From an uncultured Actinomycetota bacterium (GTDB taxonomy: Bacteria; Actinomycetota; Actinomycetes; JAHEKZ01), in contig CAVQYR010000001.1 in NCBI GenBank assembly GCA_963718235.1, positions 1,920,001 through 1,984,000 on the forward strand: DNA of 64,000 nucleotides. The letters run 5' to 3'. This document shows, piece by piece, positions 10,820-31,660 of the stretch. The notes beneath the pieces were generated by a model. The model saw only the letters and a program-made list of their open reading frames with translations, was not told the origin of the DNA and made no database searches. A program made the translations under genes and the position numbers. Numbering within the stretch: position 1 is the first letter of the stretch; each line of letters begins with the position of its first letter.

Positions 10820-10857
10820 GCCGGTGCCCGCTCCCCCTCAGGGGAGCGGGCACCGGC
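10820..10857 (-). terminator. Hairpin ending the pilus locus, upstream of aroC
   Basis: 17-bp stem gccggtgcccgctcccc / ggggagcgggcaccggc with 4-nt loop. Confidence 0.75.
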
Positions 10858-10881
10858 GTCCGTGCGATGGTCGGTGCGGGG

Positions 10882-11535
10882 TCAGCTCCAGTACAGCGTG
10901 ACCGAGTCGCCCTCGATCAGATCGACGATCGAGCCGCTGCCCAGCCGGATCGAGACGTACGCGCCGCTCTTGTCACTGCCGATCCCGACGACCTCGAACT
11001 GGACGACGGCACCCTTCGGGAGCAGGTCACCCTTCTTGACTCCGCGGAACACGTCGCCGTTCACCGTCAGCGTGGCCGTCTTCTTGGCTGTGTCCACCGA
11101 GGTGGCCGTGACCTTGTAGCTGGTGACGGCCGTGTCGGTCGGAGCTGGTGTCGGCGTGGGTGTCGGGTTGGTCGACGTGTCGGTCGGCTGAGTCGTGGGG
11201 AGGGGTGACTCCTCCACGACCGGTACCTCCTCGGCCGCCAGCGGCTCGAACGGGTCGGTACCGACCTCGTCGTCGAACGTCGCCGGAAGCGTCTGCGCCT
11301 TCTTGGGCCCGGGGGTGGGCTCGGCCGAGGTGGTCGGCCGAGGGGTGACCACGAGGGCAGCTCCCTCGTCGTCCCCACCACCGGAGAAGAACAGCACGTA
11401 GGCGACCCCGAGCACGACCACGGCGGCCACGGCGGCTGCCACGATCACGAGCACACGGCGGTTCGAGCTGCCGCTGCCGGCGTCATCAGCGCTGAAGTCC
11501 GGCGGAGTCTCCACCGTCTGGTTGGTGTCGGACAT
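10882..11535 (-). CDS. Membrane-anchored pilus-associated hypothetical protein (pilP position)
   Basis: One TM helix, DPFEPL motif, Thr/Pro linker, beta-rich C-terminus; follows pilO. Confidence 0.7.
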   Translation of the reverse strand: MSDTNQTVETPPDFSADDAGSGSSNRRVLVIVAAAVAAVVVLGVAYVLFFSGGGDDEGAALVVTPRPTTSAEPTPGPKKAQTLPATFDDEVGTDPFEPLAAEEVPVVEESPLPTTQPTDTSTNPTPTPTPAPTDTAVTSYKVTATSVDTAKKTATLTVNGDVFRGVKKGDLLPKGAVVQFEVVGIGSDKSGAYVSIRLGSGSIVDLIEGDSVTLYWS

Positions 11536-11545
11536 CGCAGATCTC

Positions 11546-12217
11546 CTACTGGGCCGGGGTGGTCGTCGGGGTGGTGGCTGCGGTCGCGTCGGTCGGAGTG
11601 ACGACCTCAGCCGGCGGCACGAGGAACACCTGGGCGGTGATCGTCGCGCTGAGGACGGACGCGTCAGCGCTGTCCTCCGTGGTCGTGGTCGTCGCCGAAC
11701 CGTCGGTCGGCGTGTCGGTCAGGTCGGACTTGTTGACCAGAAGCGCCCGAGGCATGTTCTCGACCTCGTTGAAGAACTGCTGCAGCTCGAAGTAGCCGCC
11801 AGTGGCGACGATCCCCAGCGTGATGGCGTTGAGCGCGCCGGCGGTGTCCGTCACTGTCGTTCCAGGCGTCACCCCGACCACCGCGGGGGCTGACGGCGTC
11901 AGGGAGACGAGGTTCACCCCAGCCTGGTCAGCGGCCTCGGAGAGCTGCCGGATGAGCGTGGGCAGCTGCGGGTCGGAGGGGATCTTGGTCTCCAGCCGAG
12001 CCAGCTTCGCCTGCATCTCCGGAAGGTCCTTGCTCTGTGCCTTCAGCACCGAGATCTGGGTCTCCAGCTGAGCGTTCGCCGCGATCTGGGCATCGGTCTG
12101 GGTAGTGAGGTCTGCCGCGGCCGCCTTCTTGGGCGACACCAGCAGGAACCACGATCCGATGAGCAGGGCGGCCACGAGAACGGCCGTGCCCAGAGCCCAC
12201 TTTCGGGTCTCGGTCAT
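11546..12217 (-). CDS. pilO: Type IV pilus alignment protein PilO
   Basis: TM + coiled coil, IPSDPQLPTLIRQL, GGYFELQQFFNEVENMPR. Confidence 0.85.
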   Translation of the reverse strand: MTETRKWALGTAVLVAALLIGSWFLLVSPKKAAAADLTTQTDAQIAANAQLETQISVLKAQSKDLPEMQAKLARLETKIPSDPQLPTLIRQLSEAADQAGVNLVSLTPSAPAVVGVTPGTTVTDTAGALNAITLGIVATGGYFELQQFFNEVENMPRALLVNKSDLTDTPTDGSATTTTTEDSADASVLSATITAQVFLVPPAEVVTPTDATAATTPTTTPAQ

Positions 12218-12218
12218 G

Positions 12219-12896
12219 TCACTTACCTTCCTTCAGGCCGAAGCGGTTGGACTTCGCGGCCTCGGTCAGCTGAGCGCTGGATGCCCACGAGTAGACGGTG
12301 TCCACCGTGTTGTCCTCGTCCTCGGTGATGCTCTGGGCGTAGGGGTTCTCGTACGAGGGCTGCTTGCGGAAGGACTGCAGCCAGGACGCCACGGCGTCGT
12401 AGCTGACGGCCTTGCCCGTGTACGTGACGGTGCCGGTCGGCGGGATGTACGGAACGCCGGTGGCCGCTGCCGCTGCGGCTGCGGCCGGGTCGCTCGGGGC
12501 GACGACGATCGACATCGTGGTCAGCCGGACCGACTGCGGGATGGTGAGGCTCAGGTCGTTCATCAGGAACGACACGCGCACCTCAGGAGCCATCGCCGTG
12601 GCGAGGTTCGTCTCCGCGGTGGCCACCTGCTGTGCGACGAGGGGAACCTCGGCGTACTGAGCTGCCTCGGCCTGCAGAGCCGCGTTCTCGGCCTGAGCGG
12701 CTTCCAGCTCGGACTGTGCCGACGAGACCTGCCCGCTGGCCCAGAAGTAGAGCAGGCCAGCCAGGACGAGGGCTCCGACCACGATCACGGCCAGGACCTT
12801 CTTCAGCCGGGCCAGCTGCTCGGCCTGCTCGATCTCCGGGGGCAGGAGGTTCACCCGCGGGAGCGCGGCAGCACGAGTGACAGTCAACGTGGTCAT
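12219..12896 (-). CDS. pilN: Type IV pilus alignment protein PilN
   Basis: PilM-binding VNLLPP motif, TM, coiled coil, IPQSVRLT. Confidence 0.85.
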   Translation of the reverse strand: MTTLTVTRAAALPRVNLLPPEIEQAEQLARLKKVLAVIVVGALVLAGLLYFWASGQVSSAQSELEAAQAENAALQAEAAQYAEVPLVAQQVATAETNLATAMAPEVRVSFLMNDLSLTIPQSVRLTTMSIVVAPSDPAAAAAAAATGVPYIPPTGTVTYTGKAVSYDAVASWLQSFRKQPSYENPYAQSITEDEDNTVDTVYSWASSAQLTEAAKSNRFGLKEGK

Positions 12897-13960
12897 GCGG
12901 CACCGCCCAGGGCAAGACCGACCGGCACGGTGGCCAGCGGTTCGACGAACTGCATCTGCTCTGCGGAGAGCCCGGTCTTGCCGACGGTGATGTCAGCGAA
13001 CGGGTTGCCGCGCACGACCTCGATCCGGGTCGCGGACTGCAGCCGCTCGGCCAGTCCTCCGAGCCTTGATCCGCCACCAGTCAGGAGGATCCGCTCGATC
13101 GGCTGTGAGCCGCTGGACGACGAGTAGTAGTCGAGCGAGCCCCGGACCTGGTCGGCGAACGCCTGCCCGGCCGCGTCCATGACCCGCCCGGCGGCCTGCT
13201 CGTCGGCGTCCTCGCCGGAGGCCTGCATGCCCTGCTCGTGCTTCATGGCCTCGGCCTGTGCGGCGCTCACGCCGATCCGCTCGATGACTGCGTCGGTGAC
13301 GTCCTGGCCGCCCATGAGCAGGATTCGGACGAACCGCGGCACGCCGGACTCGTGGATGATGATGTTGGTGACTCGGGCGCCGACGTCGACGAGTGCCTCG
13401 AGTCGCGAACCGCCCATCCCGAGCTCGTCGGTGTCTGCGAGGGACCGCAGCACCGCAAACGCAGTGAGGTCGACCATCACCGGCTTCAGACCGGCCCGCT
13501 GCACTGCCTCCAGCTGGGCGGAGACCATGTCCCTGCTCGCCGCGACCAGCAGGCCACGCAGCAGGCGTGCCCCGCCGTCGCCGGTCAGCTCCTCGAGAGG
13601 GTAGAAGTCCAGCAGTGCCTGCTCGACCGGCATCGGGATGGTCTCTTGGACTTGGTAGCCAAGAGTCTCCTTCAGCTCGTCGAGCGGGGCCCATGGCAGG
13701 TCGACCTGGCGGACGATGACCTTCTGGTTGGCCACGCCGACCACGACGTCCTTGCCGGTGAACTTGGTGTGGGCCCACAGCTGCTTGAGTGCTGCGGTGA
13801 CCGCGGCGGGGTCGTGTACCTCCCCGTCACGTACCGCACCCTCGGGCAGCGCAACCTGCCCGAACTTTTCGAGCGTGATTCCGGACTTGCCGAATGTCAG
13901 CTCTGCTGCGCGTACGCCCGAGGTCCCGATGTCGAGTCCGATGGCGGTTCGTCCTGCCAC
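12893..13960 (-). CDS. pilM: Type IV pilus assembly protein PilM
   Basis: Actin-like motifs IGLDIGTS, VDVGARVT, LTGGGSRL; C-terminal VGLALG. Confidence 0.93.
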   Translation of the reverse strand: MAGRTAIGLDIGTSGVRAAELTFGKSGITLEKFGQVALPEGAVRDGEVHDPAAVTAALKQLWAHTKFTGKDVVVGVANQKVIVRQVDLPWAPLDELKETLGYQVQETIPMPVEQALLDFYPLEELTGDGGARLLRGLLVAASRDMVSAQLEAVQRAGLKPVMVDLTAFAVLRSLADTDELGMGGSRLEALVDVGARVTNIIIHESGVPRFVRILLMGGQDVTDAVIERIGVSAAQAEAMKHEQGMQASGEDADEQAAGRVMDAAGQAFADQVRGSLDYYSSSSGSQPIERILLTGGGSRLGGLAERLQSATRIEVVRGNPFADITVGKTGLSAEQMQFVEPLATVPVGLALGGAA

Positions 13961-14030: not shown

Positions 14031-14056
14031 TCGGCGCACAACGGGGTGGGCTTGAG
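14031..14056 (-). promoter_or_regulatory. Putative sigma28/FliA/WhiG-type promoter of pilMNO
   Basis: CTCAAG-N15-GCCGATGA on the minus strand. Confidence 0.75.
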
Positions 14057-14121: not shown

Positions 14122-14919
14122 TCAGCCGAGGACTCCCAGGTAGGCGTCCCACACCCCATCACCGAAGAGCACGGCGAGCCAGGCACCCAGAAGCATGAAC
14201 GGCCCGAACGGGATCTTGGACTTCCGGCCGGCCCGGTGGGACAGCATGAGGGCGCCGCCGACCACGGCCCCGAGCAGGAAGCCCAGGAACCCCCCCACGG
14301 CCAGCACACCCCAGCCCAGCCAGCCCAGGACAAGCCCCAGGACTCCCGCGAGCTTGACGTCCCCGAACCCCATCCCCGACGGGTACACCAGCACCAGGAC
14401 GAAGTAGAGGCCGAACAGAGCGGCTGCGGCGAGCCAGGCCCGCAGGTAGTCCCCCCACGATCCGTCCGCCACCGTTGGGAGCAGCAGCAGTGCCCCGAGA
14501 ACGGGGTACGACGGCAGCGTGAGGGCATCGGGGAGCCGGTGGACATCCAGGTCGATGAGGGCCAGTGCCACGCCAACGGCCCCGAAGTACAGGTAGGCAG
14601 GCAGGACCCAGTCGAACCCGAACCGAAGGGCCATGGACACGAACACCAGGCCGGTGAGCAGCTCGACGAGCGGGTACCGGATGCTGATCGGCGCCCGACA
14701 CTGTCGACAACTTCCGCGCAGCAGCAGCCACGACAGGACCGGGATGTTGTCCAGCGCCCCGATCTCGTAGCCGCACCGAGGGCAGCGGGAGCGTGGGGAG
14801 ACGACCGACTCCCCGCGCGGGACCCGATAGATCACGACGTTAAGGAACGACCCGACGATCAGCCCGAGGACGGCGCACAGGACAGTCAGCACGGCCGTAC
14901 CGTAGTCGCCAAGCACCAC
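14122..14919 (-). CDS. pilD: Prepilin peptidase/N-methyltransferase
   Basis: GSFLNVVIYRVP, two CxxC, IDLDVHRLPD, GMGFGDVKL, IPFGPF. Confidence 0.93.
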   Translation of the reverse strand: MVLGDYGTAVLTVLCAVLGLIVGSFLNVVIYRVPRGESVVSPRSRCPRCGYEIGALDNIPVLSWLLLRGSCRQCRAPISIRYPLVELLTGLVFVSMALRFGFDWVLPAYLYFGAVGVALALIDLDVHRLPDALTLPSYPVLGALLLLPTVADGSWGDYLRAWLAAAALFGLYFVLVLVYPSGMGFGDVKLAGVLGLVLGWLGWGVLAVGGFLGFLLGAVVGGALMLSHRAGRKSKIPFGPFMLLGAWLAVLFGDGVWDAYLGVLG

Positions 14920-14924
14920 CGAAC

Positions 14925-16574
14925 TCAGTACTGAGGACTCAGCTCGGCCGTGGTCTTGGCCCCCCAGACCGCGTTCGTCCACTGCGGGAAGTACGGCGGA
15001 GAGGTGAACTTCAGCCGCGAGTCGTACCCGTAGTCCTTCAGGTACCCGGTACCGCTGCCGCCACTGGTACCCACGATCCCGCGCCAGCGCTGGGCGATGG
15101 ATCCCCGGACGTGCAGGGTGCCCATCTTGGCGCCGTCGTTGTAGGACTGGACCCAGAAGCTGTGCTGCAGCGTCTGCAGCGACGCGTAGATCCACCGGTC
15201 GCCGACCGCGGTCAGGTTGTTGCCGCTGGCGTCGACGGGGTGGTAGACCACGACCGAGTTGGCAGCCACGAGCCCCAGCATGTCGGGACCGCTCGGGGCG
15301 GACCCCACTGGCGCGCCGGCGATCAGCATGTCACCCGTCACGACGATGTTGTTCTGGGCAGCCACGGTGACCCGGCCCAGGAGCGTCCCCTGGATGTAGG
15401 CGTTGCCGTTGCCGCAGTAGAACGTCGGGGTGTTCATGTTGTCGTCGTTGGCGATCGGTAGCCCGTCACCGATCTGGCCCGTGGTGCACTTGGCCTGGGT
15501 CGACGCGTTCTTGACGTAGATGACCTTGTCGTTGGGTACTGGCACCGTTACCGGGGAGGCCCCGGTGAAGGTTCCGCATCCCGCTCCGGTCGAGGTACCC
15601 GCGCTTCGGGTGCTCCAAACTGTCATCGTTCCGTTGCTGTTGAACTTGATCCGGGTGTCGCCGGTGTACTGGCAGCCGGGGTAGCCGCTGAACGCGCTGC
15701 TGTTGTCCGGCAGGTACAGCAGCGGTGCGTAGCGGGGCTGCCCGCCGTTCAGGTTGGGCGTGCCGCTGCCGCGACGGCAGTTGGCGATGCTCGGCGTCTT
15801 GCACTTCGGGTCGGCGGTCTCGTACTGCTTGAGGAACGTCGTCGAGCCGTTGATCAGCGGAGTGTCGTTGAAGTGCACCGCGCCGTCGAGGACGTCACCC
15901 GAGACGAACTGGATCTCGGTGCATCCGCGTGAGCTGTTCTCCCACCAGTAGTCGGCGCTGGCCGGCCCGGACTTGCCGCACGCGTTCGTCGAAGGTCCGG
16001 TCGGGTAGACCTGGGTGTTGCCGGGGTCGGCGTCCTCGAAGTCGGTGTAGTAGAGGAAGTCGGTCGATCCACCGCGCGAGACGAGCACCTGGATCGAGCG
16101 TGAGCTGGTCCGCACCTTGCCGGTCACCGTGACGCGCACCGCGCCCTGGCTGTAGATGCCGCTCGCGTCCACGTCGTAGTGGAAGAGCCCGGCGTCGCTG
16201 TTGCCCGGCTGGACGTACTGCCAGCCCGGGGTGGTCGACGCGTTCCAGCCACAGCTGTTCGTACCGGCCTTGGGCCCCTTGAGCGCCGGGTTCGTGCAGT
16301 CGACCGAGGTCCAGTAGGTGTCGCTCTGGTTGAGCCGGGCAATGTAGTCGTCGACCCCTGCCTGGGCCGCCGCAAGGGCCGCGTTCCAGTCCTGGCTGCG
16401 CCGAGCGCCCGGCTGCGCCTGCAGAGCCATCGTGAAGGCTGCCGCGAGGAGCATGCTGAGGACCGTGATCGACGCCATCACCAAGATCATGGCGATGCCC
16501 TGGTCCTCGCCCGGGTCAGGGGCTCGACCGCTGAGGCGGTTGGCGACGTTTCGGTACATGTCTGCTCCTGTCAC
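14925..16574 (-). CDS. PilX/GspK-like large minor pilin, candidate tip adhesin
   Basis: G|IAMILVMA prepilin-like site lacking E5; AALAAAQAGVDD; Cys-rich beta body; YLKDYGYDSRL tail. Confidence 0.75.
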   Translation of the reverse strand: MTGADMYRNVANRLSGRAPDPGEDQGIAMILVMASITVLSMLLAAAFTMALQAQPGARRSQDWNAALAAAQAGVDDYIARLNQSDTYWTSVDCTNPALKGPKAGTNSCGWNASTTPGWQYVQPGNSDAGLFHYDVDASGIYSQGAVRVTVTGKVRTSSRSIQVLVSRGGSTDFLYYTDFEDADPGNTQVYPTGPSTNACGKSGPASADYWWENSSRGCTEIQFVSGDVLDGAVHFNDTPLINGSTTFLKQYETADPKCKTPSIANCRRGSGTPNLNGGQPRYAPLLYLPDNSSAFSGYPGCQYTGDTRIKFNSNGTMTVWSTRSAGTSTGAGCGTFTGASPVTVPVPNDKVIYVKNASTQAKCTTGQIGDGLPIANDDNMNTPTFYCGNGNAYIQGTLLGRVTVAAQNNIVVTGDMLIAGAPVGSAPSGPDMLGLVAANSVVVYHPVDASGNNLTAVGDRWIYASLQTLQHSFWVQSYNDGAKMGTLHVRGSIAQRWRGIVGTSGGSGTGYLKDYGYDSRLKFTSPPYFPQWTNAVWGAKTTAELSPQY

Positions 16575-17287
16575 GGACTCGGAGTCGTCTGGGCGATGGC
16601 GTCGGCGTTAGGCAGGGTCACCCTGGACGCGAAGGTCGTCGCGGGCACCCGCGTGCCGTTGCCGACCCGCGTCGAGACCACCACGTCGACGCTGTCGACC
16701 AGCGACAGCGCAGTGGCGTTCAGCGTTGCCGTGCCGAGTGACGTCCCCGTGTTGTCGTAGTAGGTGAACACGGTCTGTCCGGGCACCATGTTGCGGGCCA
16801 GGACCCGGCTCTTGACGACGCAGCCTGGACCTGGGGTGCAGTACTGGTAGTTGTAGTCGTTCGCGGCGTGGGCGTTGGGTGCCTGCACGGTCTCGACCAG
16901 CTCGTTCGCGGCGTTCACCGCGTAGCTGACCCGGCTGGGCCCAATGACGTTGTTGTCGTTGTTGATGTTCGCGTAGAACTGCACCGAGGTCGGTGTCCCC
17001 TGGATGAAGGCAGCAAGGTTGCTGCAGCCGGTACAGGTGGCGTTCAGCTGCGAGGGCAACACCGCTGTGCGCAGGTTCTTGGTCACCGACTCGATGGCCT
17101 GGCGGCCCTGCTGGGTCTGGTCGACGCGGTTCGACTGGTCGCTGACGGTGCGCTGCGTCATGATCAGGGCGGTCTGGACCCCGGCCAGCACGACTCCGAG
17201 GATGAAGATCGTGATGATCACCTCGGTGAGGGTGAAGCCGCCGTCGCCGCTGGCGGCCCTGTTGCGGCGTCGAAGGAACTCGGTCAC
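16571..17287 (-). CDS. Minor pilin (PilW-like)
   Basis: G|FTLTEVIITIFILGVV class III signal. Confidence 0.85.
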   Translation of the reverse strand: MTEFLRRRNRAASGDGGFTLTEVIITIFILGVVLAGVQTALIMTQRTVSDQSNRVDQTQQGRQAIESVTKNLRTAVLPSQLNATCTGCSNLAAFIQGTPTSVQFYANINNDNNVIGPSRVSYAVNAANELVETVQAPNAHAANDYNYQYCTPGPGCVVKSRVLARNMVPGQTVFTYYDNTGTSLGTATLNATALSLVDSVDVVVSTRVGNGTRVPATTFASRVTLPNADAIAQTTPSP

Positions 17288-18636
17288 GTCGTCACCGCCG
17301 TCACGGTCGAGGGAGTGGAGGTCGGGAGCAGCCCGGAGATCGTGGGCCAGCTCCCGGAGGGGCTTCGGCCCTGGACCTGGATGACCCAGCTGCCTGCCGG
17401 CAGAGAAGTCAGGAGGTCACCGGACCCGTTGGTGACGCCGAGGTTCAGTGAGGTGTCCGTGGTCAGGCAGCCAGTCGTCGATGAGGGAACCGCGACCACC
17501 GTGGCGTTGGAGAGCCACACCCCGGCTGCGGTCCGGACCCGCACCCGGACAGGTGCCAGCCGGGTCGTGGTCGAGGCCGAGGCGCCCGGCGCTACTACGA
17601 CCGCTGCCGAGCGGGTTCCGCCTGCCGTGGCCGGGTCGGACTGGGAGCAGGTGCCGGCCCAGACCGAGTAGCCGTCGGGGAAGGGCCACAGGGTCGGGAT
17701 CGTCGTGGTGGCGCCGGACGACGCCAGCAGCCGGGTCCCGGTCGGCTGGAGCCCCGTGTTCGCCAGGGTGACGCCAGGCAGGGTCGCGGGCAGGGCATAG
17801 CCGCCCTCGGTCGTGAACGTGACCGCGAGCGTCGAGGCCCGGTCGTAGTTGAAGGTCAGCTGCGAGAGGGTCCCGGAGCTGACGACGACGTTCTTCGAAG
17901 GGCTCTGTGTGCCGTAGAAGTCCACGTAGCCGGCCGTGTTCATCGAGGCGGCGTAGGTACCGAAGCTCGTCACGGAGAAGACCGCGCAGCCGTCGTCTGC
18001 GGTTGTGTCGGTGGAGGTGCCGCCTGGTCCGGACAGCTGAACGAGCTGGCCGATGCGCGGCTGACCGGCGCTGTCCAGGACCTTGACCCCGACGAAGGCC
18101 AGCGTCGAGGACAGGATGCCCTTCTTGGGGGTGAGGATCGTGCTCGTCTCGACCGGCGGCACGTTACCCATCCCCGGCCAGGTCACCTCGACCTTGACCG
18201 ACAGGGTCGGGTACGTGATGGCCGCGCCGCCGTCGCAGGCGCTCTTGCCGGACCCGGCCGGCAGCCACTCCACGTTTCGGGTCACGGTGTATGGCACGCT
18301 GTCGACGTACAGAGGGTTGCCTACCGTTCCCCCGGGCAACGGGTGGGGATTGACCACGAAGTTCGTCGCGGCCAGGGTCGTGGGTCCGGTCAGCGAGGCG
18401 TTGAACTCGTTCCGGACGATCTCCGCCTCACGCGACGCGAGGTTGGCCGCCGCCACCCGGTTCTTGTCCAGCCTCGCCGTCTTCATGACCGCCGCCAGGC
18501 CGGCCACGGTCGCGGCGGCCACGACGGCGAAGATCACCATCGCGATGACCACTTCGATCAGGGTGAGTCCGGCCTCGTCAGAACGAGGTCCGCCACGCGC
18601 GTTGGGGTACCTGGGCACCCGGAAGGCCTTCCGCAT
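17284..18636 (-). CDS. Large minor pilin (PilV-like) with C-terminal beta-sandwich repeats
   Basis: G|LTLIEVVIAMVIFAVV; repeated VKVLD..G / VRVRT..G strands. Confidence 0.8.
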   Translation of the reverse strand: MRKAFRVPRYPNARGGPRSDEAGLTLIEVVIAMVIFAVVAAATVAGLAAVMKTARLDKNRVAAANLASREAEIVRNEFNASLTGPTTLAATNFVVNPHPLPGGTVGNPLYVDSVPYTVTRNVEWLPAGSGKSACDGGAAITYPTLSVKVEVTWPGMGNVPPVETSTILTPKKGILSSTLAFVGVKVLDSAGQPRIGQLVQLSGPGGTSTDTTADDGCAVFSVTSFGTYAASMNTAGYVDFYGTQSPSKNVVVSSGTLSQLTFNYDRASTLAVTFTTEGGYALPATLPGVTLANTGLQPTGTRLLASSGATTTIPTLWPFPDGYSVWAGTCSQSDPATAGGTRSAAVVVAPGASASTTTRLAPVRVRVRTAAGVWLSNATVVAVPSSTTGCLTTDTSLNLGVTNGSGDLLTSLPAGSWVIQVQGRSPSGSWPTISGLLPTSTPSTVTAVTT

Positions 18637-23812: not shown

Positions 23813-23880
23813 GAGACGGGCCTCCTTCGACGCGCGCGGTTGGGTGCGGGCGGTTGCTCGCACGTCCTTCTGGCAGGGCA

Positions 23881-23947: not shown

Positions 23948-25630
23948 TCACACGACGACGCGCAGGATCTCCTCCATCGAGGTGATCCCCCGGGCGACCT
24001 TGTCCATGCCGTCCAGGCGAAGCGTGATCATTCCCTCGTTGCGCGCGGTCTCGCCGATGACCGTGGCCGAGGAGTGCTCGACCGCATGGCGTTCCACGGC
24101 CTCGGAGACGGCCATCACCTCATGCAGGGCCAGACGGCCCTTGTATCCCGTCTTGGAGCACGAGCTGCAGCCCTTCGGCCGGTGCAGGGTCGGGATCGGC
24201 TCACCGTCCTGCCACGGGTACCTCCCGGCGACGAGCTCCGCGGGGGAGGGCTGGTAGGGCTCCTTGCACTTGCTGCACAGTCTGCGGGCCAGACGCTGGG
24301 CCAGCACGCAGTCCAGCGCCGACCCGACGAGGAACGGCTCGAGCCCCATCTCGGTGAGCCGGGTCACCGCCGAAGGAGCGTCGTTGGTGTGCAGGGTGGA
24401 CAGCACGAGGTGGCCGGTGAGCGCCGCCTCGACAGCGATCTGGGCCGTCTCGTGGTCGCGGATCTCACCGATCAGCACGATGTCGGGGTCACAGCGCAGG
24501 ATCGAGCGCAGGGCCGCGGCGAAGGAGAGACCAGCCTTCGCGTTGGTCTGTACCTGGTTGATCCCGGGGATCCGGTACTCGACCGGGTCCTCCACCGTGA
24601 TCACGTTGACCTCAGGACGCGCGATCTGGTTGAGCGTGGCGTAGAGGGTCGTCGACTTCCCGGAACCGGTCGGTCCGGTCACCAGGATCATCCCGTAGGG
24701 CTTGCTGAAGCTCTGGTGGAAGACGTCGAAGTTGTGCTGGGAGAACCCCAGGTCGGCCAGGTCCAGCCGGGTGTTGGAGTTGTCCAACACACGCATGACC
24801 ACCTTCTCGCCCCACACGGTGGGCAGCGTGGCCACGCGGAGGTCGATCTTGCGGCCCTGGTGGGTCACTGAGAGGCGACCGTCCTGCGGAACACGTCGCT
24901 CGGCGATGTTGATGTCGGCCATGATCTTCAGCCGGCTCGTGACACCGGACTGGATCGTCTTGGGAGACTTCATGACCTCGTGCAGCACCCCGTCGATGCG
25001 GTAGCGCACGATCAGGTGGTGCTCCGTGGGCTCGATGTGGATGTCGGAGGCTCGGTCCTGGATCCCCTGGGTGATGAGCAGGTTGACGTACTTGACGATC
25101 GGGGCGTCCTCGACGACCTCCTTGATCTTGGAGAGGTCGTCCTCCTCGTTGTTGTCCTCGAGCACCGCCTGAAGGTCGTCCAGGGCGTCGTCGGCCCGGA
25201 AGTACCGGTCGATGGCGGCCGCGACGTCGGCCCGCGTCGCCACGACCGGCTTGATGTCGACGAAGATGTTCGCCGACGCCAGCGTCGCCTTGACGTCGTC
25301 GATGGCGAAGACGTTCGCCGGGTCGGCCATCGCCAGCAGCAGCTTGCCGTCGTCGTCGATCCGGATCGGCATGGCGCTGTGCTTGCGGCACATGTTGCCA
25401 GGAACGCGGGCGACGATGCTCGCGTCCACCGGGTAGTCCCCCAGGTCCACGAACTCCAGGCCGATCTGCTGGGCCAGGGCCGCGACCAGCTGGGACTCGG
25501 TCAGCACCCCTTGGTCGACCAGGACCCGGCCGAGTGCCCGCCCCGCCTTCTGGTGCTCGCTGTGGGCGGTGATCAGCTGGTCCTCAGAGACCAGCCCACG
25601 CTCCAGCAGGATGTCCCCCAGCTGCTTCAC
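23948..25630 (-). CDS. pilB: Extension ATPase PilB with MshEN-like N-terminus
   Basis: LGDILLERGLV / LGRVLVDQGVL; ASDIHIEP; GPTGSGKST; two CxxC; GYKGR. Confidence 0.95.
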   Translation of the reverse strand: MKQLGDILLERGLVSEDQLITAHSEHQKAGRALGRVLVDQGVLTESQLVAALAQQIGLEFVDLGDYPVDASIVARVPGNMCRKHSAMPIRIDDDGKLLLAMADPANVFAIDDVKATLASANIFVDIKPVVATRADVAAAIDRYFRADDALDDLQAVLEDNNEEDDLSKIKEVVEDAPIVKYVNLLITQGIQDRASDIHIEPTEHHLIVRYRIDGVLHEVMKSPKTIQSGVTSRLKIMADINIAERRVPQDGRLSVTHQGRKIDLRVATLPTVWGEKVVMRVLDNSNTRLDLADLGFSQHNFDVFHQSFSKPYGMILVTGPTGSGKSTTLYATLNQIARPEVNVITVEDPVEYRIPGINQVQTNAKAGLSFAAALRSILRCDPDIVLIGEIRDHETAQIAVEAALTGHLVLSTLHTNDAPSAVTRLTEMGLEPFLVGSALDCVLAQRLARRLCSKCKEPYQPSPAELVAGRYPWQDGEPIPTLHRPKGCSSCSKTGYKGRLALHEVMAVSEAVERHAVEHSSATVIGETARNEGMITLRLDGMDKVARGITSMEEILRVVV

Positions 25631-27456
25631 TGCGCTTCCTCTCCAGGAACGTCGTCGCCTGACCCCTCCGGGGTCTCATCGGTCGTCTCCCCCTTCTGCT
25701 GGAGCCAGGTGAGCAGTGCGCTCGTCCCCGGGACGGCCTCTTGGGTCGCCGAGCGGACGAGTGCCACGGCGGCCGGGCGCTGGCCCGCAGCCACCAGGAC
25801 GTCGGCCCGCCCCTCGACGGTCGACGGTCGCGGCTGGTCCGGGAAGGCCGCCTCCGACACCTGCAGCCCTTCGGGGACCCGTCCCAGACGGACCAGGGCG
25901 AGGGCACGCGCCTGGGCCAGCACCGGGTCGTCGGCAGCGGCCCGTGCGGTCCGGTCGAACGCCTCTTCGAGCCGGGCCCGGTCCGCGGCGTCGGCCGGGA
26001 CCAACCTGCGCATCGTGGCCAGGTCGACCCGGTCCGTCGGCAGCCCTGCGGCCCATCCCTGGACCAGTCCCGTCGTGCCCAGCAGCCTGCCGACCGGGCC
26101 CAGCATCGACAGCGGCGCCTGCTGGGCTGCGCCGAGCACACTGCTGCCGAGCGCCAGGACGACGGCGACCCCGGTGAGCACGGCCACGGCCCGCGCTGGG
26201 CCGGCGGACGATTCGGGCGTCGGCGACCGCTCGGGGGCCACGAGCACGGCCCCGACGATGGCGAAGGCCGCCAGCAGGGCGGGGTAGTCCCAGTCGAAGT
26301 CGAACAGCGCATGGGCACCCAGGGTGAGGACCGCGGCGGCAGCGGCTGTCCTGGTCACGTCGAGCCGAGCCCGGGTCAGGACGAGCCGAGCCGCGGCCCA
26401 CAGGAGCCAGCCGGTGACCAGCACCACCGGGACGGCGAGCAGCAGTCCGCCGTCGGTCAGCGCCTGCAGCCACCCGTTGTGCACCAGTGCGCTCGCGGAT
26501 GACTCAGCGGGCATCAGGTGCTGACCAGCCGACTCGAACGACCCGAAACCGGCCCCCTGGACCGGGTGCCGCAGCCACAGCTGCCAAGCCGCCGTGAAGT
26601 AGTCGATCCGGATCCCGAGGCTGGACCCGGCGGACTCGACCCGGGAGCCGAGCGCTCCCGAGCCGCTGCCCGAGCCCACCGACAGCGTCAGCACCCGTGC
26701 GACCAGCGGGACGGCGGCGGCCACCGCTGCCAGCCGAACGGCCGCACCCCAGTTGCGCACCGTCGCCGCGGCGACGACCACGGCGATCGCGACCAGCAGC
26801 AAGGTGGCCGCCCGGCTCCCGGACAGCACGATCGCCGCACCGAGGACGGGCGCGAGAACGACACCGAGCGCCCGGGGGCGGCCGGACGCCGACCCGGCGA
26901 GGACCAGCGCGATCGAGGCGGGGGCGAGCATGAAGCCGGCGAAGGAGTTGTGCCAGAAGTACGTGCCGACCCACGGTGCCGTGGCGGTCCCGCCGCCGAA
27001 CCAGGCCCACCAGGCCTGGAACGCCTGGTCCAACCCGACCGCCACGACGACCAGGAGGACCGCCATCCGCCTCTGGGCGGTCGATCCGGCCGCGGCCACG
27101 GCCAGGCCCAGCAGCCCCGCGTACAGCCACGACGCAGCGTCATCCAGGCCCTGCCACCCCGTCGCGCTGATCGCGTTCGAGGCGAGCGCGCACAGGCCCG
27201 GACCGAGAGCGGCAACGAGCGACCACGTCGGGAGCACACGCCAGGGACGGGAGACGACCAGCAAGGGCACCAGGCAGGCCAGGGCCGAGGCGAGAGACAG
27301 CCCGGCCCGTCCCCCTGAGGCGTGACTGAGCCACAGCCCCCATCCCGCGGCCGCCAGCAGCCCGGCTGCTGCCAGGGCCCAGGGGACGTCCGCGGACGGC
27401 GACGCGGTCGCCTCGGCGGGGTCGGTCCTTGCGGGACCGGTCAGGCGCACCGTCAC
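25627..27456 (-). CDS. O-antigen ligase (Wzy_C) family membrane protein, candidate pilin glycosyltransferase
   Basis: Many TMs; SGSRAA, R..YFTAA..HPVQGAGFGSF, HNGWLQAL.DGG, HALFDFDW. Confidence 0.8.
   Translation of the reverse strand: MTVRLTGPARTDPAEATASPSADVPWALAAAGLLAAAGWGLWLSHASGGRAGLSLASALACLVPLLVVSRPWRVLPTWSLVAALGPGLCALASNAISATGWQGLDDAASWLYAGLLGLAVAAAGSTAQRRMAVLLVVVAVGLDQAFQAWWAWFGGGTATAPWVGTYFWHNSFAGFMLAPASIALVLAGSASGRPRALGVVLAPVLGAAIVLSGSRAATLLLVAIAVVVAAATVRNWGAAVRLAAVAAAVPLVARVLTLSVGSGSGSGALGSRVESAGSSLGIRIDYFTAAWQLWLRHPVQGAGFGSFESAGQHLMPAESSASALVHNGWLQALTDGGLLLAVPVVLVTGWLLWAAARLVLTRARLDVTRTAAAAAVLTLGAHALFDFDWDYPALLAAFAIVGAVLVAPERSPTPESSAGPARAVAVLTGVAVVLALGSSVLGAAQQAPLSMLGPVGRLLGTTGLVQGWAAGLPTDRVDLATMRRLVPADAADRARLEEAFDRTARAAADDPVLAQARALALVRLGRVPEGLQVSEAAFPDQPRPSTVEGRADVLVAAGQRPAAVALVRSATQEAVPGTSALLTWLQQKGETTDETPEGSGDDVPGEEAQ
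25679..25704 (-). promoter_or_regulatory. Near-consensus sigma28-type promoter of pilB, inside the upstream gene
   Basis: CTCCAG-N15-ACCGATGA about 50 nt before the pilB start. Confidence 0.5.
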
Positions 27457-27824
27457 CTCGGGGTGATCGGCCGAACGAGTGACGGCCTTGACCTGTTCGC
27501 CGGGTCGGACCCGCCGGCAGGACCGCGAGTCGACCCACGGTCGGTCGGCTGAGGCGGCCGATCGCCGATGAGCGCCGCAGCGACGAGCCGGAAGGCGTGC
27601 GAGCGGGGGTCGTCGCGCAGCAGCTGCACCTGGGTACCGTCACTGAAGCCCAGCGCCACGTCGGCGTCGGGAACCGGGTCCGTGCCTCCTCGAGGCCATC
27701 GGTCGGGGACGGGTCCCACCTCGGAGCTCGCGGGGGCGACCGGGGAGTCGACTGGCCGCACACCCGTGCCGATGCGGTTTCCCGACGCGTGACGGCCACG
27801 AGGCTGTCGCCGGAACCAGCTCAT
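27453..27824 (-). CDS. Hypothetical protein
   Basis: Fills the operon gap, stop overlaps the next start; RGRHA and VALGFSDGTQVQL segments. Confidence 0.6.
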   Translation of the reverse strand: MSWFRRQPRGRHASGNRIGTGVRPVDSPVAPASSEVGPVPDRWPRGGTDPVPDADVALGFSDGTQVQLLRDDPRSHAFRLVAAALIGDRPPQPTDRGSTRGPAGGSDPANRSRPSLVRPITPR

Positions 27825-27842: not shown

Positions 27843-28430
27843 CTACACCCCTGCCGGCTGGGCTTCGACGTCGTCCAGCACGGCGTACAGCAGGGCGAGC
27901 AGCACCGACTTGACCGAGTCCTTGTCGGTCGCGTCGCAGGGTACGAGCGGCACGGAGGCGTCGACCCCGACCGCCTGGCGCAGGCGCGCCGACTCGACGT
28001 CGTCCAGCTGCTCCAGCCGGTTGACCGCGACGACGAACGGCACCCGGGCCATCCGCTGGAACGCCTCGCGAATCCCCGACGCCTCGGCAAGGGAGTCGGC
28101 CCGGGTCGGGTCGACGAGCAGGATGTACCCGAGCATCCCCTCGCCGAGGATCTCCCACATGAAGTCGAACCGTTCCTGCCCGGGCGTCCCGAACAGGTAG
28201 AGCACGAGGTCGCGGTCGATCGTGATCCGCCCGAAGTCCATCGCCACCGTCGTCTCGTTCTTGCGGGACTTGGTGTGGTCGGTGATGCCGCGCTCGGTGG
28301 ACAGCACGGTGATCTCCGACACGGTCCGGATGAGCGTCGTCTTGCCCGCGGCGAACGGACCCGTGATGACGATCTTCACCGCCTGGCCGCCGTGGCGACG
28401 CCGCTTGTTGGCGGATTTCGTGGTCATCAC
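27843..28430 (-). CDS. Small Ras-like GTPase (CvnD / MglA-related)
   Basis: KIVITGPFAAGKTT, TTVAMDFG, LYLFGTPGQERFDFMW, VAVN, CDA. Confidence 0.9.
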   Translation of the reverse strand: MMTTKSANKRRRHGGQAVKIVITGPFAAGKTTLIRTVSEITVLSTERGITDHTKSRKNETTVAMDFGRITIDRDLVLYLFGTPGQERFDFMWEILGEGMLGYILLVDPTRADSLAEASGIREAFQRMARVPFVVAVNRLEQLDDVESARLRQAVGVDASVPLVPCDATDKDSVKSVLLALLYAVLDDVEAQPAGV

Positions 28431-29870
28431 AGCCCCCGGACGCCGGCGATGAGCCTCAGCAGGAGGCTGCGGTTGACCGAAGGGTCACGCTCGATCGCGC
28501 TGTGCCCGATCGGTTGGGCAGCAGCGGCGGCCCCACCCATCGAGCCGCCCATGGAGACCGGTGCGCTCATCGGACGGGTGCATCGGGTGGGCCATCGGCT
28601 GGGCCATCGGCTGGGCCATCGGCTGGGCCACGGGACCACTCGGGGGTGCCGCAGCGTGGTGCGCCACGACGTGCTGGGCGGCCGGCTGCTCGACCGCACC
28701 GGGCTGGATGACGGGGGGGCCGGGCACGTTCCTGGGCTGCACCGGTGCGACCGGTGTCCCCGGGGCCGGGAAGCCGGCCCGGGAGGGTGTGGACTCCGGC
28801 TCGGGGTGATCGACGGACCGCTTGGGCAGGAACGGCTCGGGGCGCGGCGGAACCACGTCCTCCGGCTGGTGTGCGCCGCCGAGCCGAGCGGCCGGGGCTT
28901 GCGGGTGCCCCGGGGGCAGGGCCGGCGACGAGGTCGGCTGACCGGGTGGGTACTGCTGGGCCGGCGCCTGGACCGACAGCTGGGCCGACTGCTGGACTGA
29001 CTGCTGGGGGTACGACGAGGGGTCCGCCACCAGCGGGGCCACGATCGACGTGCCGTTCGGCACCGCTTCCGGTGCAGCGTCCGGTCCGGCGTCCGGTGCC
29101 TGCTGGTACCTGCCCTCCAGTACGCCGAGCAGGGCCTGGCGACGCAGGACGACGGTCACATGGTCCGCCGCGTCCTCGTCACGCAGCAGGAGCAGTCCCC
29201 GCTGCACCAGGGAAGCGAGGGCAGCCACGACCCCGTACTGCCCGGCACCACTCAGGGCGACCAGGTCGCCGACGCTTCGGGAGCCGTCGATCAACGACAG
29301 CAGGGCCCACTCGTCGCGGCTGACGCTCGGGTCGTCGTCCAGCACCACCGGCATGGTCAGGACGACGTCGGGCGAGGGGATGACCTTGGAGACCCCGTCC
29401 CAGGTGTCGCGACGGGCCGTCGCCTCGGTCACGACCTCCTCGGAGGACACCGAGATCCCGACCTCGTCGGGGTTGGCCTCGTCGACGGTGAACGAGAAGT
29501 CGCCGTTGGGCCAGCGCAACAGGTCGAAGACGGCGTCGATCGTGTGCTCGGTGGCCAGGGTGCGCAGGACGTCCGCGTCTGCGGAGCCGGACTCAAGAAC
29601 GGCCCGGGCCACCCCGATCGACTCCGCCGCACAGCGATCGACGGCGCGACGCAGCGCGGCGTCGTCGACCACGCCCAGGCCGACGAGGCGACGGGCCAGA
29701 CCCTGCCGGGCCTCGTCGCTCACCGCTCCGGTGATCTCGCCCTGGGCGAAGTAGACCGCGCCGGAGACCTGGCCGTTGGCCAGGTGCAGTCCCCCGGACT
29801 TCTTCGTCAGGCTCAACAGCTGGAAGACGTCCGGGAGGCTGAACGCGTCGAGTGAACCCTCGAGCTTCAC
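28427..29870 (-). CDS. DUF4388 (PATAN-like) domain protein, frameshifted near 28575
   Basis: MKLEGSLDAFSLPDVFQLL..KKSGGL..VYFAQGEI; LLRWPNGDFSF; winged-HTH-like IDGSRSVGDL; shifted tail NRSLLLRLIAGVRGL. Confidence 0.8.
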
Positions 29871-29886
29871 GTCTCGTCCCGTCTCT

Positions 29887-29918
29887 GGGTCTGGTGGGTG
29901 GGTCTGGTGGGTGGGTCT
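29887..29918. repeat. 13-bp intergenic tandem repeat
   Basis: gggtctggtgggt x2 plus a partial copy. Confidence 0.8.
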
Positions 29919-29951
29919 AGGAGCCGGAGCCGTCGGGTCGAGACGCCGGCC

Positions 29952-30689
29952 TCACGACCACGACGCCGGCCCGGTTCGGGGACCTGAGCCGTTGCTGCGG
30001 GTGTCCGGCCCCTGCGGCGGCTCGGGCTGGTAGGTCACCGGCGCAGGGCGCGGGACCTGCTGGGCGACCGGCTCGGCGAGCGGCTGGGCAAGGGGCTGGA
30101 CCACGGGCTGGCGCAGTGGGTCCGGCTGCACCGGGTACTGCGGCTCCGAGCGCTGCGGCGGGTACGGCGCGTCCTCGACCCTCTGCTCGACCGGTCGTTG
30201 GGGAGCCGGGTAGCGGTCGTCGTGGTGCGACGGCGCGACCTGCGGGGGGAACGACGCCGGCTGCTCGGCCGGTCGGTCGTCGACCCGCAGGACGGCTGCG
30301 ACGGCCTGCGCCGCCCGCCTCACCTCGAACAGGAGCAGTCCGACCTTGGCGCCACGGGCACCGACGGCCACGAGCACCGCCTCGTCGTCCGCCGACACCA
30401 GGAAGACCGTGCCGGACTCGCCCTCGACGTAGACCTGGGACAGGTCCCCGCGGCCCAGTCCCTGCGCGGCGCGCTCACCCAGGGACAACAGGGCAGCGCT
30501 CATGGCGGCCACCCGGTCCTCGTCCATGCCCGGCGGCAACGCCGAGGCCATGGGCAGGCCGTCGAAGGAGACCACTGCTGCGGCCTCCATCTCGGGAGCC
30601 TGGCTGAGCAAGGTGGTCAGCACCGCGTCGAGCTGGCCGGATCGGCTGGCAGGACCCGTGCTGAGCAGGTCGGAGTAACGGTCGGTCAT
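29952..30689 (-). CDS. Roadblock/LC7 protein (MglB / CvnB-like) with Pro/Gln tail
   Basis: AAVVSFDGLPMAS, RVAAMSAALLSLGERAAQGLGRG, QVYVEGESG. Confidence 0.9.
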   Translation of the reverse strand: MTDRYSDLLSTGPASRSGQLDAVLTTLLSQAPEMEAAAVVSFDGLPMASALPPGMDEDRVAAMSAALLSLGERAAQGLGRGDLSQVYVEGESGTVFLVSADDEAVLVAVGARGAKVGLLLFEVRRAAQAVAAVLRVDDRPAEQPASFPPQVAPSHHDDRYPAPQRPVEQRVEDAPYPPQRSEPQYPVQPDPLRQPVVQPLAQPLAEPVAQQVPRPAPVTYQPEPPQGPDTRSNGSGPRTGPASWS

Positions 30690-30736
30690 GGCGGACCCTC
30701 TCGCGCTGGCTGCGAGCGGTCGACCACCGCTCACCG

Positions 30737-31660
30737 CTACTGCTTCGGCGGCCCCGCTGCTCCCCTTGAGCGACCGCCGTCCGCGTGACGTCGCTCCCGC
30801 AGCTCGGCCAGACCGGCGTCGCGCAGGACCGAGGCCGAGACGTCGCGCCCGGTCATCAGGGTGACCTGCCCGCGGGCCTGGTGGACCAGCATCTCCAGGC
30901 CACCGGCGACCGCGCCCCCGGCGCTCGCCCACGCGGCGCCCAGCGCGGTCGGCCAGGGCTCGTAAACCACGTCGACGAGCAGTCCCAGCGGGGAGCGACC
31001 TGCGCCCACCGCGTCGACCAGGTGGTCGGCCGCGCCGGTCGGGACGGTGGACACCACGACGTCGGCGTCCAGCCCGGCACCGGCGTCGGACCACGGGCAA
31101 ACCGACACGGCGGGGCCGCCGGCGGGGTCGGGGCCGACCGTGCCGAGCGCGGCCACCTGCTGCACCCATGACGCAAGGTCGGGCAGCGCGTCAGGTCGAC
31201 GCGCACACACGGTGACCTGCTCCGCGCCCACGTCCACGAGCGCGGCGATCGCCGACCGGGCGGTCGCCCCGGATCCCAGCACCGTCGCCGTCCGCGGGCG
31301 GACCACCCCGTGCTCGCCGAGCACGGTGACCAGGCCGGGCACATCGGTGTTGTGACCCACTCGCCCGGCCGGGGTCAGCAGCACCGTGTTCACCGAACGC
31401 AACGTGCGCGCCAGCGGGTCGATGGCGTTGAGCAGCGGGACCACCGACTCCTTCAACGGCATGGTCAGGGAGAGCCCGACCCAGTCGTCGTCCAGTCCGT
31501 CGAGAAAGGCGCCGAGACCGTCCGGGCCCAGGTCGACGGCCTCGTAGGTCCACGGAAGACCGAGCGACCGGTACGCGGCCCGGTGCAGGGCCGGAGACAG
31601 CGAGTGCGTGATCGGACGCCCCAGGACGGCGGCTCGCCGGACGCCGGGCCCGCCCACCAC
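30737..31660 (-). CDS. aroE: Shikimate dehydrogenase
   Basis: HSLSPALH, SLTMPLK, VNT, NTD, LGSGATA, GLEMLVHQA. Confidence 0.93.
   Translation of the reverse strand: MVGGPGVRRAAVLGRPITHSLSPALHRAAYRSLGLPWTYEAVDLGPDGLGAFLDGLDDDWVGLSLTMPLKESVVPLLNAIDPLARTLRSVNTVLLTPAGRVGHNTDVPGLVTVLGEHGVVRPRTATVLGSGATARSAIAALVDVGAEQVTVCARRPDALPDLASWVQQVAALGTVGPDPAGGPAVSVCPWSDAGAGLDADVVVSTVPTGAADHLVDAVGAGRSPLGLLVDVVYEPWPTALGAAWASAGGAVAGGLEMLVHQARGQVTLMTGRDVSASVLRDAGLAELRERRHADGGRSRGAAGPPKQ
30745..30770 (-). promoter_or_regulatory. Putative sigma28-type promoter of the Roadblock-DUF4388-GTPase operon
   Basis: CTCAAG-N15-GCCGAAG in the 3' end of aroE. Confidence 0.72.

Follow-up and report, generated by a model that had tools for sequence, protein, structure and literature searches.

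The window examined here, a stretch of 64,000 nucleotides (G000:C1:1920001-1984000), comes from the genome of an uncultured actinobacterium (3.17 Mb in two contigs, about 70% G+C) and carries a type IVa pilus locus whose first genes encode a Roadblock protein, a PATAN (DUF4388) protein and a small GTPase, referred to below as the triad. Gene order and strand were taken from an open reading frame (ORF) listing, filtering by G+C content at third codon positions (GC3) and Pfam/NCBIfam scans, with 28 ORFs scanned for domains. The genes form a single co-directional block on the minus strand between aroE (30737-31693) and aroC (9611-10789). The triad is followed by a 123-amino-acid ORF and by genes for a Wzy_C protein, PilB, PilT and PilC; after a riboswitch of the cyclic di-GMP-I (c-di-GMP-I) class come three pilins, three minor pilins, PilD, PilM, PilN, PilO and a membrane ORF (Table 1). 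The components by which a type IVa pilus is recognized, namely PilB, PilT, PilC, PilD, PilM/N/O and pilins with an N-methylation motif, are all present in the one locus. The block is real and strongly non-random. The original prediction, made from the sequence alone, had described it together with overlapping junctions at 28427-28430, 27453-27456 and 25627-25630; the domain scans and the ORF coordinates agree with both. The NCBIfam scan assigned no family to the Roadblock protein, the PATAN protein, the 123-amino-acid ORF, pilA2 or the third minor pilin.

Table 1. Genes and regulatory features of the pilus locus, with positions in the window
Feature	Position	Strand	Basis or remark
Roadblock/LC7 protein (MglB/CvnB-like), 245 aa	29952-30689	-	Robl_LC7 1.8e-17; start codon revised
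PATAN (DUF4388) protein, frame as in the assembly	28485-29870	-	Pfam DUF4388 2.9e-24
PATAN conserved C-terminus ...IERDPSVNRSLLLRLIAGVRGL-stop	28427-28567 (ORF 28427-28699)	-	different frame in the assembly
MglA-family small GTPase, 194 aa from ATG 28427	27843-28430	-	ATP_bind_1 7.5e-19, Ras 7e-7
Small ORF, 123 aa, no family	27453-27824	-	stop overlaps Wzy_C start
Wzy_C / O-antigen-ligase-family membrane protein	25627-27456	-	Pfam Wzy_C 5e-13
PilB extension ATPase, MshEN-like N-terminus	23948-25630	-	T2SSE 5e-138, MshEN 8.8e-20
PilT retraction ATPase	21750-23881 (core ORF 21750-23315)	-	TIGR01420 489 bits
PilC platform protein	20516-21739	-	T2SSF 3.5e-70
c-di-GMP-I riboswitch aptamer, pilA1 leader	20344-20417	-	RF01051, 56.4 bits
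pilA1	19878-20312	-	N_methyl / GFTLIE motif
pilA2, frameshifted	about 19360-19866	-	GFTLIE motifs and frames
pilA3	18775-19215	-	N_methyl / GFTLIE motif
Minor-pilin-like genes (three)	17284-18762, 16571-17287, 14925-16574	-	N_methyl in first two; prepilin motifs
PilD prepilin peptidase	14122-15195	-	A24_N_bact 3.4e-37, Peptidase_A24
PilM	12893-13960	-	PilM_2 2.8e-51
PilN	12219-12896	-	PilN 2.5e-6
PilO	11546-12217	-	PilO 5.4e-10
Membrane ORF	10882-11535	-	ORF listing
Promoter motif, about 55 nt upstream of Roadblock start codon	30745-30769	-	
Promoter motif before Wzy_C	27467-27491	-	
Promoter motif before PilT	23881-23905	-	
Promoter motif before riboswitch	20442-20466	-	
Promoter motif for minor pilins	18647-18671	-	
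Promoter motif before PilM	14031-14055	-	

The GTPase, present as a single copy in the genome, displays the G motifs GPFAAGKT (G1), ETT within ETTVAMD (G2), GTPGQ (G3), NRLE (G4) and DAT (G5). The MglA family is marked by a P-loop G1 (GxxxxGK[ST]) and by a G3 motif whose Asp is replaced by Thr (TxxGQ); Groups 2-5 have GTPGQ, and Group 1, with MglA and SofG among its members, has TVPGQ together with an intrinsic arginine finger by the G2 threonine (PMC4316618). The P-loop and FGTPGQ, with Thr for Asp and the catalytic Gln, are conserved in 67 pilus-linked sequences, and a Robl_LC7 gene lies two genes upstream of the GTPase in the window (one Robl_LC7 match in the genome). A Thr occupies the position of the Group 1 arginine finger. 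The G4 motif also departs from the [NT]KxD of Group 5, as it is NRLE in the window with a pilus-linked consensus of N-R-x-x. By its motifs, the GTPase is an MglA-family protein of Group 2-5 type, not of Group 1. Similarity to the solved MglA of T. thermophilus is weak (E 0.0014), and eukaryotic Rabs match equally well.

Ten paralogues of the GTPase at 41-46% identity were located, all of them in conservons, the operons that encode CvnA-D and are headed by CvnA, a histidine-kinase-like membrane sensor. Roadblock genes stand beside 10/10 of them, DUF742 genes beside 9/10 (the tenth not scanned) and HATPase_c genes beside 9/10 (the tenth lies at a contig start); seven of these HATPase_c proteins carry a NIT domain. 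The pilus locus was predicted to have no CvnA, and none of the 28 window ORFs scanned has a HATPase_c domain. The GTPase itself is not of CvnD type. It has NRLE and DAT, and its ATP_bind_1 match is partial at 68.9 bits, against full-length matches of 90-114 bits in CvnD. G4 runs from NKQD in Chloroflexota and Aquificota relatives through N-R-x-x in pilus-linked proteins to NxFD in CvnD, and G5 is DAT in pilus-linked GTPases and DAR in CvnD.

A tree of 97 sequences (pilus-linked, CvnD and Chloroflexota/Aquificota relatives) places the pilus-linked GTPases and CvnD in one Actinomycetota clade, apart from the Chloroflexota and Aquificota sequences, with a support of 96 in the Shimodaira-Hasegawa-like approximate likelihood ratio test (SH-aLRT). 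CvnD forms a single long-stemmed clade (support 100). The phylogeny proposed as a check on the original prediction groups the pilus GTPases with CvnD but keeps the two distinct. The tree in which all 69 non-CvnD Actinomycetota sequences group together is 8.6 log units better, with p 0.668 in the approximately unbiased (AU) test. A nested position of CvnD inside the pilus-linked clade, seen in a quick tree, was dropped, as the AU test does not require it.

The middle protein of the triad contains DUF4388 (PF14332; E 2.9e-24, 85.9 bits against a cut-off of 25). In an AlphaFold model built with 37 sequences, residues 1-250 are confident, with 231 residues at pLDDT of at least 90, and the chain is disordered thereafter. 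In the model, a beta core with a four-helix insert (residues 57-118) leads through one more helix to a winged helix (about 185-235), and a final helix closes the ordered part. A long, disordered, Pro-rich linker of 100-200 residues comes after it, and every orthologue ends in ...IERDPSVNRSLLLRLIAGVRGL or a variant of it, with a stop codon that overlaps the GTPase start. CvnC/DUF742 proteins have similar endings, LLERVLSGLRRL and VLESVLNGISAL. A pattern for this ending, composed after both sets of proteins had been seen, matches 55/64 PATAN ORFs, 9/9 CvnC proteins and 0/2150 genome ORFs; the nine PATAN ORFs that it misses are seven broken ORFs and two near variants. A search of the PDB with the whole model by Foldseek gave nothing at E <= 0.001. 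With VIA-align, the winged helix finds its best match in a GATOR1 chain (8fw5_B; Z 9.4, 70 aligned residues, rmsd 3.0), followed by many winged-helix regulators at Z 5.7-6.9, values that lie partly within the range of common arrangements. In a profile comparison by hhalign, residues 150-262 aligned with nine CvnC proteins at E 3.8e-4 and a probability of 36%. With moderate confidence, the protein may be read as a PATAN domain fused to a CvnC-like half.

Triad relatives are also found in Aquificota and Chloroflexota. The PATAN proteins (231-276 amino acids) that adjoin the GTPase there have the same architecture and ending, and beside them stand Roadblock, HAMP or protoglobin genes but no PilB; in Actinomycetota the triad is fixed upstream of pilB. 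In one Chloroflexota locus (L081), DUF4388 and a Ras-like GTPase domain are joined in a single 426-amino-acid ORF (2503-3783, minus strand); a Roadblock-protoglobin-PATAN-GTPase set stands on its own 6 kb away. In five deep-branching loci (L066, L068, L070, L074 and L077) the PATAN protein is 1081-1273 amino acids long, three times the usual length, with the N-terminal domain and the C-terminal motif retained.

Conservons, also called AGPS, are among the closest known systems to the triad. The gene order is alike, being Roadblock, middle protein and GTPase, as in the Mfp system (MfpE-D-C-B); the conservon GTPases are the nearest paralogues; and the middle protein and CvnC appear to have the winged helix and the C-terminal motif in common. 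In contrast to conservons, the pilus locus has no CvnA kinase-like sensor, its middle protein has, in addition, a PATAN domain at the N-terminus and a long linker but gives no match to Pfam DUF742, and its GTPase shows NRxx and DAT against NxFD and DAR. The set is also present as one copy per genome, fixed beside pilB. In the AGPS survey of 2026, systems were defined through synteny with cvnA (PMC13343842). MfpC (DUF742) binds to its GTPase and has the role of guanine nucleotide exchange factor (GEF), and MfpD (Roadblock) acts as a GTPase-activating protein (GAP) (PMC11343762, PMC13343842). By analogy, the Roadblock protein of the window, in which the Roadblock domain is followed by a Pro/Gln-rich tail, is proposed as the GAP for the GTPase, and the PATAN protein as GEF and adaptor. 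The best reading of the sequence comparisons is that the triad represents a CvnA-less sister of the conservon proteins CvnB-C-D.

The tie of the module to the pilus is well supported by its distribution. A GTPase orthologue at >=64% identity was found in 27/41 related genomes, and four others have paralogues only (44-49%). In each of 13 loci fetched from relatives, the interval from aroE to aroC holds PATAN and GTPase genes upstream of PilB; the Roadblock gene was found in 12 of them, and in two, 9-11 kb are inserted before Wzy_C/PilB. A larger set was assembled from 80 loci (one genome per species) and the first 13, minus three duplicates, of which 76 have a GTPase at >=50% identity. PilB lies downstream in 54 of the 62 loci that extend at least 3 kb in that direction, and within 3 kb in 49 of them. 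Of the eight others, three belong to Chloroflexota and two (L079, L099) are Actinomycetota loci that are arranged differently; L041 and L060 have inserts ending before PilB, and L054 extends just 3.2 kb downstream. Upstream, among loci with at least 2.5 kb on that side, Roadblock is present in 60/64 and DUF4388 in 61/64.

A survey of the phylum used an even sample of 301 genomes, each at least 90% complete, with thresholds of E <= 1e-42 for the GTPase and E <= 1e-90 for PilB. The GTPase was detected in 52 genomes and PilB in 217. Apart from the genome of the window, a listed PilB match lies within 2.5 kb of the GTPase on the same contig in 48/51 genomes (47 downstream, one upstream); in the remaining three the GTPase is at a contig edge or the place of PilB is not listed. 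Unpublished genomes account for six of the 48 (G041, G057, G087, G210, G256, G267), and the count is 42/45 without them. The order mltG-Roadblock-PATAN-GTPase-aroE-PilB-PilT-PilC-PilM-PilO-aroC is seen in deep-branching classes such as 'Candidatus Solincola', where GTPase and pilB remain linked although aroE intervenes. The gene-neighbourhood survey thus finds the module conserved beside pil genes across Actinomycetota, as the original prediction supposed. No cultured carrier is among the best 120 homologous proteins, whose names are only generic ('ATP/GTP-binding protein', 'small GTP-binding protein'). The relatives that bear names are all metagenome-assembled genomes, with the labels Sporichthyaceae, Frankiaceae, Motilibacteraceae, Acidothermus sp. 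and Nanopelagicales.

A second line of evidence is a promoter motif that recurs along the locus, a feature which the first reading of the sequence had remarked on. The exact FliA/WhiG consensus (-35 TAAA, -10 GCCGATAA) has no match in the window, and with up to two mismatches it gives three sites against 2.9 in shuffles. The form specific to the locus is enriched: TCAAN{15,18}GCCGA has eight matches in the window against 1.67 +/- 1.30 in 100 shuffles, none of which reached eight. Six of the eight are TCAAG-N15-GCCGA on the minus strand and precede Roadblock, Wzy_C, PilT, the riboswitch and pilA1, the first minor pilin and PilM. The same motif occurs 48 times in the 3.17 Mb genome (both strands), so that about 0.3 sites would be expected in 20 kb, where six are found. 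Among relatives, it stands upstream of Roadblock in 45/61 orthologous loci and is also found before PilT, PilB/Wzy_C, the pilin leader, a minor pilin and PilM. Rough search windows gave lower counts at these other sites (22/50, 10/34, 6/18) because gene starts are uncertain.

From Roadblock through PilB the largest intergenic gap is 81 nt. A terminator scan returned two terminator-like sites against 4.6 expected, both inside genes and none between the Roadblock-PilB genes, and a sigma-70 scan returned no promoters. From the shared motif and the short gaps without terminators we infer that the GTPase module is co-regulated with the pilus genes and probably, in part, co-transcribed with them.

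The motif TCAAG-N15-GCCGA resembles the FliA/WhiG consensus and may be regarded as FliA/WhiG-like. In Rubrobacter, pil genes are expressed from this consensus and are subject to RsiG, an anti-sigma factor that depends on c-di-GMP (PMC8325347). The genome studied here has genes for a sigma factor of the FliA/WhiG family (283 bits against a cut-off of 189.6) and a twin-motif RsiG (PF22802, 111 bits), and FlhA was not found in it at 95% completeness. The two cases have in common FliA/WhiG-like promoter motifs before several pil units in an actinobacterium without flagella, the presence of WhiG and RsiG, and a GGDEF gene downstream of a like motif; they differ in the -35 element and in that RsiG here is of the twin-motif kind. 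The available text of PMC8325347 (figure 6B and supplements outside scope) makes no mention of a GTPase, Roadblock or PATAN gene. The GGDEF gene (833649-834107, plus strand) lies just 3' of a TCAAG...GCCGATAA site at G000:C1:833026 (+), belongs to a group of three GGDEF matches at 831.9-838.8 kb and recalls the WhiG-controlled dgc genes of Rubrobacter. The rsiG gene is at L115 4524-5102 (+), with a Pfam RsiG score of 111 bits and twin c-di-GMP motifs. About 1 kb from it, in divergent orientation, is the second DUF4388 protein of the genome (894 amino acids; G000:C2, L115 842-3526, minus strand).

The riboswitch would add a second level of c-di-GMP control. The RF01051 aptamer scores 56.4 bits against a gathering score of 35, over model positions 1-87, and is followed by a short hairpin and a ribosome-binding site. 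Of 15 related loci, 10 have a c-di-GMP-I clan riboswitch after pilC and before the first pilin; one of the five loci without it appears to end in pilC. In two relatives (L011 10755-10830 and L035 14958-15041) the pilin leader is the c-di-GMP-I-GGC variant RF03167, not the standard class I aptamer. The genome has 15 GGDEF domain matches, and the N-terminus of PilB retains the twin MshEN motif (PMC5013675) except for the first Arg of each half. Input of c-di-GMP on expression of the locus is well supported. Of the c-di-GMP input that had been predicted for the switch, the pilin riboswitch is present and a transcriptional route is plausible, as both WhiG and RsiG are encoded; so far as the sequence shows, c-di-GMP works through expression and not through the GTPase module itself.

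In Clostridioides difficile, a c-di-GMP riboswitch is located upstream of the pilin gene pilA1. A c-di-GMP-sensing leader at the major pilin of a Gram-positive type IV pilus is thus common to both organisms, but the aptamer here is of class I (RF01051, or the GGC variant in the two relatives) and the host belongs to Actinomycetota.

Taken together, the locus is read as encoding a conservon-like G-protein switch that lacks CvnA and is linked to the pilus, and on whose expression c-di-GMP acts; we put the probability of this reading at about 0.6. The locus is that of a type IVa pilus of a monoderm actinobacterium, and its first transcription unit would encode the three-protein small-G-protein switch. 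The nucleotide state of the GTPase would be set by the Roadblock protein and by the CvnC-like part of the PATAN protein, and engagement of the PilB/PilT motors with the PilM/PilC platform, or the site of it, would depend on this state. Contact with the motor is probably made by the PATAN domain, as with cyanobacterial PatA-type regulators. The whole locus, switch included, would be expressed from FliA/WhiG-type promoters and, for that reason, would probably come under the c-di-GMP-dependent RsiG anti-sigma factor; the major pilin would be under additional control by the c-di-GMP-I riboswitch. What we infer in this scheme, beyond the observed gene content, conserved linkage, shared promoters, family relations and domain composition, comprises the GAP and GEF roles, the motor contact, the sigma factor assignment and any effect on the number, place or direction of pili. 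The original prediction had spoken of a sensor-less conservon or MglAB-like switch. The lack of CvnA, the MglA-family motifs and the relatives in full conservons favour that description, but the Group 1 features of MglA are absent.

Several observations weigh against this reading. In the phylum sample, 217 of the 301 genomes have PilB and only 52 the GTPase; as most PilB-bearing genomes lack the module, the pilus can function in its absence, and the switch can be no more than an accessory. NRLE is a degenerate form of G4, with which guanine specificity is not assured. The relation of the PATAN protein to CvnC is weak by profile comparison (hhalign of residues 150-262 with nine CvnC proteins, E 3.8e-4 over 71 columns, probability 36%), Pfam DUF742 has no match in 14 PATAN orthologues even at E 10, the C-terminal pattern is retrospective, and the winged helix could bind DNA. 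In the phylogeny, the AU test (p 0.668) leaves undecided whether CvnD lies inside or beside the pilus-linked clade, and other MglA groups lie outside the sample. On the side of expression, the -35 element is TCAAG where the published one is TAAA, and the exact consensus is missing from the window. Finally, the conserved C-terminal end of the PATAN protein is read in a different frame from the rest in the assembly, and if this is real the switch is impaired in this organism.

The last point belongs to a set of three genes with apparent frameshifts, in or beside repeats: those for the PATAN protein, pilA2 and the PilT extension. The PATAN shift falls between about 28,567 and 28,600, past an (AQPM)x3 repeat; in a genome of the same genus (G001) the gene reads through in one frame, and broken PATAN ORFs occur in several other long-contig metagenome-assembled genomes. 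Contigs from public short reads match 28371-28580 and 28626-28866 without indels, and the pieces shown miss 28581-28596. In pilA2 (19360-19900) the GFTLIELL N-terminus is in one frame and the ...WYYDS... C-terminus in another, and the PilT extension continues in another frame (ORF 23240-23881) with a GC3 near 1.0. Assembly error is the likelier source of these frameshifts, rather than real decay. Among public runs, no RNA run is listed as containing the locus, and the best run shares 0.24 of words.

The switch may instead be a strict MglA/MglB polarity or reversal system, in which the GTPase marks a pole and places PilB and PilT at opposite ends of the cell, and a change of its state reverses the direction of twitching. 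MglA/MglB of Myxococcus xanthus and Thermus thermophilus likewise consist of a Ras-like GTPase with Thr for Asp in G3 and a Roadblock partner, and are likewise tied to type IV pili and the PilB/PilT ATPases, a tie that is made here by gene linkage, the Roadblock and MglA-family genes adjoining both pilB and pilT. MglA and SofG do act in this manner in Myxococcus (PMC4316618, PMC11580455). However, both Group 1 hallmarks are replaced, the arginine finger by TT and TVPGQ by GTPGQ, and the domain scan of the locus showed no RomR, SgmX or Frz-like genes. The regulators are also encoded within the pilus locus of a monoderm host, with a PATAN/CvnC-like protein between Roadblock and GTPase, unlike MglA/MglB. 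A polarity function in this strict sense is considered unlikely.

Slightly less probable again is a transcriptional circuit, whereby the winged helix of the PATAN protein binds DNA under modulation by the GTPase and Roadblock and regulates pil or other genes. Conservons are thought to act on expression in Streptomyces, DUF742 is described as helix-turn-helix and Cvn8 affects gene expression (PMC11343762, PMC13343842). The winged helix itself gives weak MarR_2/HTH matches, and its VIA-align matches at Z 5.7-6.9 include MarR and Lrp regulators. Its best structural match, on the other hand, is a subunit of GATOR1, a GTPase regulator; MfpC is a GEF that works through GTPase binding; cyanobacterial PATAN regulators act on the motor; and the locus is already under its own sigma/anti-sigma and riboswitch control. 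It is hardly credible that the module is near pil genes for historical reasons and serves another process, such as cell wall growth or division (mltG being nearby) or aromatic amino acid supply, since the synteny of alaS-ruvX-mltG-aroE...aroC-aroB-aroQ across the class is outweighed by the proximity of PilB in 48/51 genomes, by a GTPase that stays near pilB when aroE moves, and by a promoter shared with pil units and rare elsewhere in the genome.

For a conservon-like switch acting on the pilus motor, a close precedent on the PATAN side is the PatA-type PATAN-REC regulators (PixG, PixE, LsiR, TaxP1) of cyanobacteria, in which PATAN is tied to the type IV pilus motor, as is proposed here. Such regulators bind PilB1 in Synechocystis (preprint 10.1101/2021.06.11.447907). 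The protein of the window is not of PatA type: the receiver domain (Response_reg, REC) is absent from it and from 14 orthologues, and input would come from the GTPase, not from phosphorylation. Proximity of MglA/MglB genes to PATAN genes has been noted before, 'occasionally' in PMC4316618 and also in the Synechocystis preprint, which raises the question of whether PATAN domains have a conserved pilus role. In Myxococcus, PATAN proteins co-occur with SgmX and are unstudied (PMC11580455).

The helical insert of the PATAN domain (residues 55-117) aligns to the N-termini of MshE and PilF (E 0.016 and 1.7e-4) and superposes on the MshEN module of MshE, PilF and PilB with an rmsd of about 2 A over 50 residues; most of the RLG and Gln positions that contact the ligand are absent. 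A bolder scheme can be proposed, tentatively and with the odds against it, in which the triad is the older form from which conservons arose via duplication, loss of PATAN and gain of CvnA. The triad would then be the first dedicated G-protein switch of a monoderm type IV pilus, and the PATAN domain, through a helical insert that mimics the MshEN N-terminus of PilB, would dock on the motor.

The locus is best described as combining elements that are each of a known kind, namely a switch of MglA/MglB type, the B-C-D core of conservons, an adaptor with PATAN, and control by WhiG/RsiG and a riboswitch. In the literature searched, which did not extend to supplements, the Actinoplanes pilus paper or Makarova et al. 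2006, no Roadblock-PATAN-GTPase module is described in actinobacterial pilus loci, and no CvnC relation is described for such a module. Of interest is that the cellular output of conservons is largely unknown, and here a close relative of the B-C-D core is linked to a single machine, the type IV pilus. The link provides a defined output that can be tested and suggests, as a hypothesis, how conservons arose. It would also extend control of pili by small GTPases from Myxococcus and Bdellovibrio to Gram-positive phyla, and link the GTPase to PATAN proteins, whose role outside cyanobacteria the literature calls open. In these common freshwater and soil actinobacteria, c-di-GMP control appears to be stacked, with a sigma/anti-sigma pair, a riboswitch and possibly MshEN-like modules.

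The remaining genes of the locus show several minor features. The Wzy_C gene is found in only part of the related loci; its product is probably a pilin O-glycosyltransferase by family, although the match to NCBIfam TfpM (pilin O-oligosaccharyltransferase) is weak at 6.5e-5, far below cut-off. Conservation of the 123-amino-acid ORF is patchy, with weak tblastn matches in some related loci only. PilT carries a long, acidic, Pro-rich N-terminal extension with PEPQAQ repeats, and the PilD ORF exceeds the gene length, homology beginning near residue 100. Within 7530-35887, the pilus locus forms an insertion in the conserved alaS-ruvX-mltG-aroE / aroC-aroB-aroQ stretch, a placement maintained in many families of the class. 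The pilin genes pilA1 and pilA3 are nearly identical copies.

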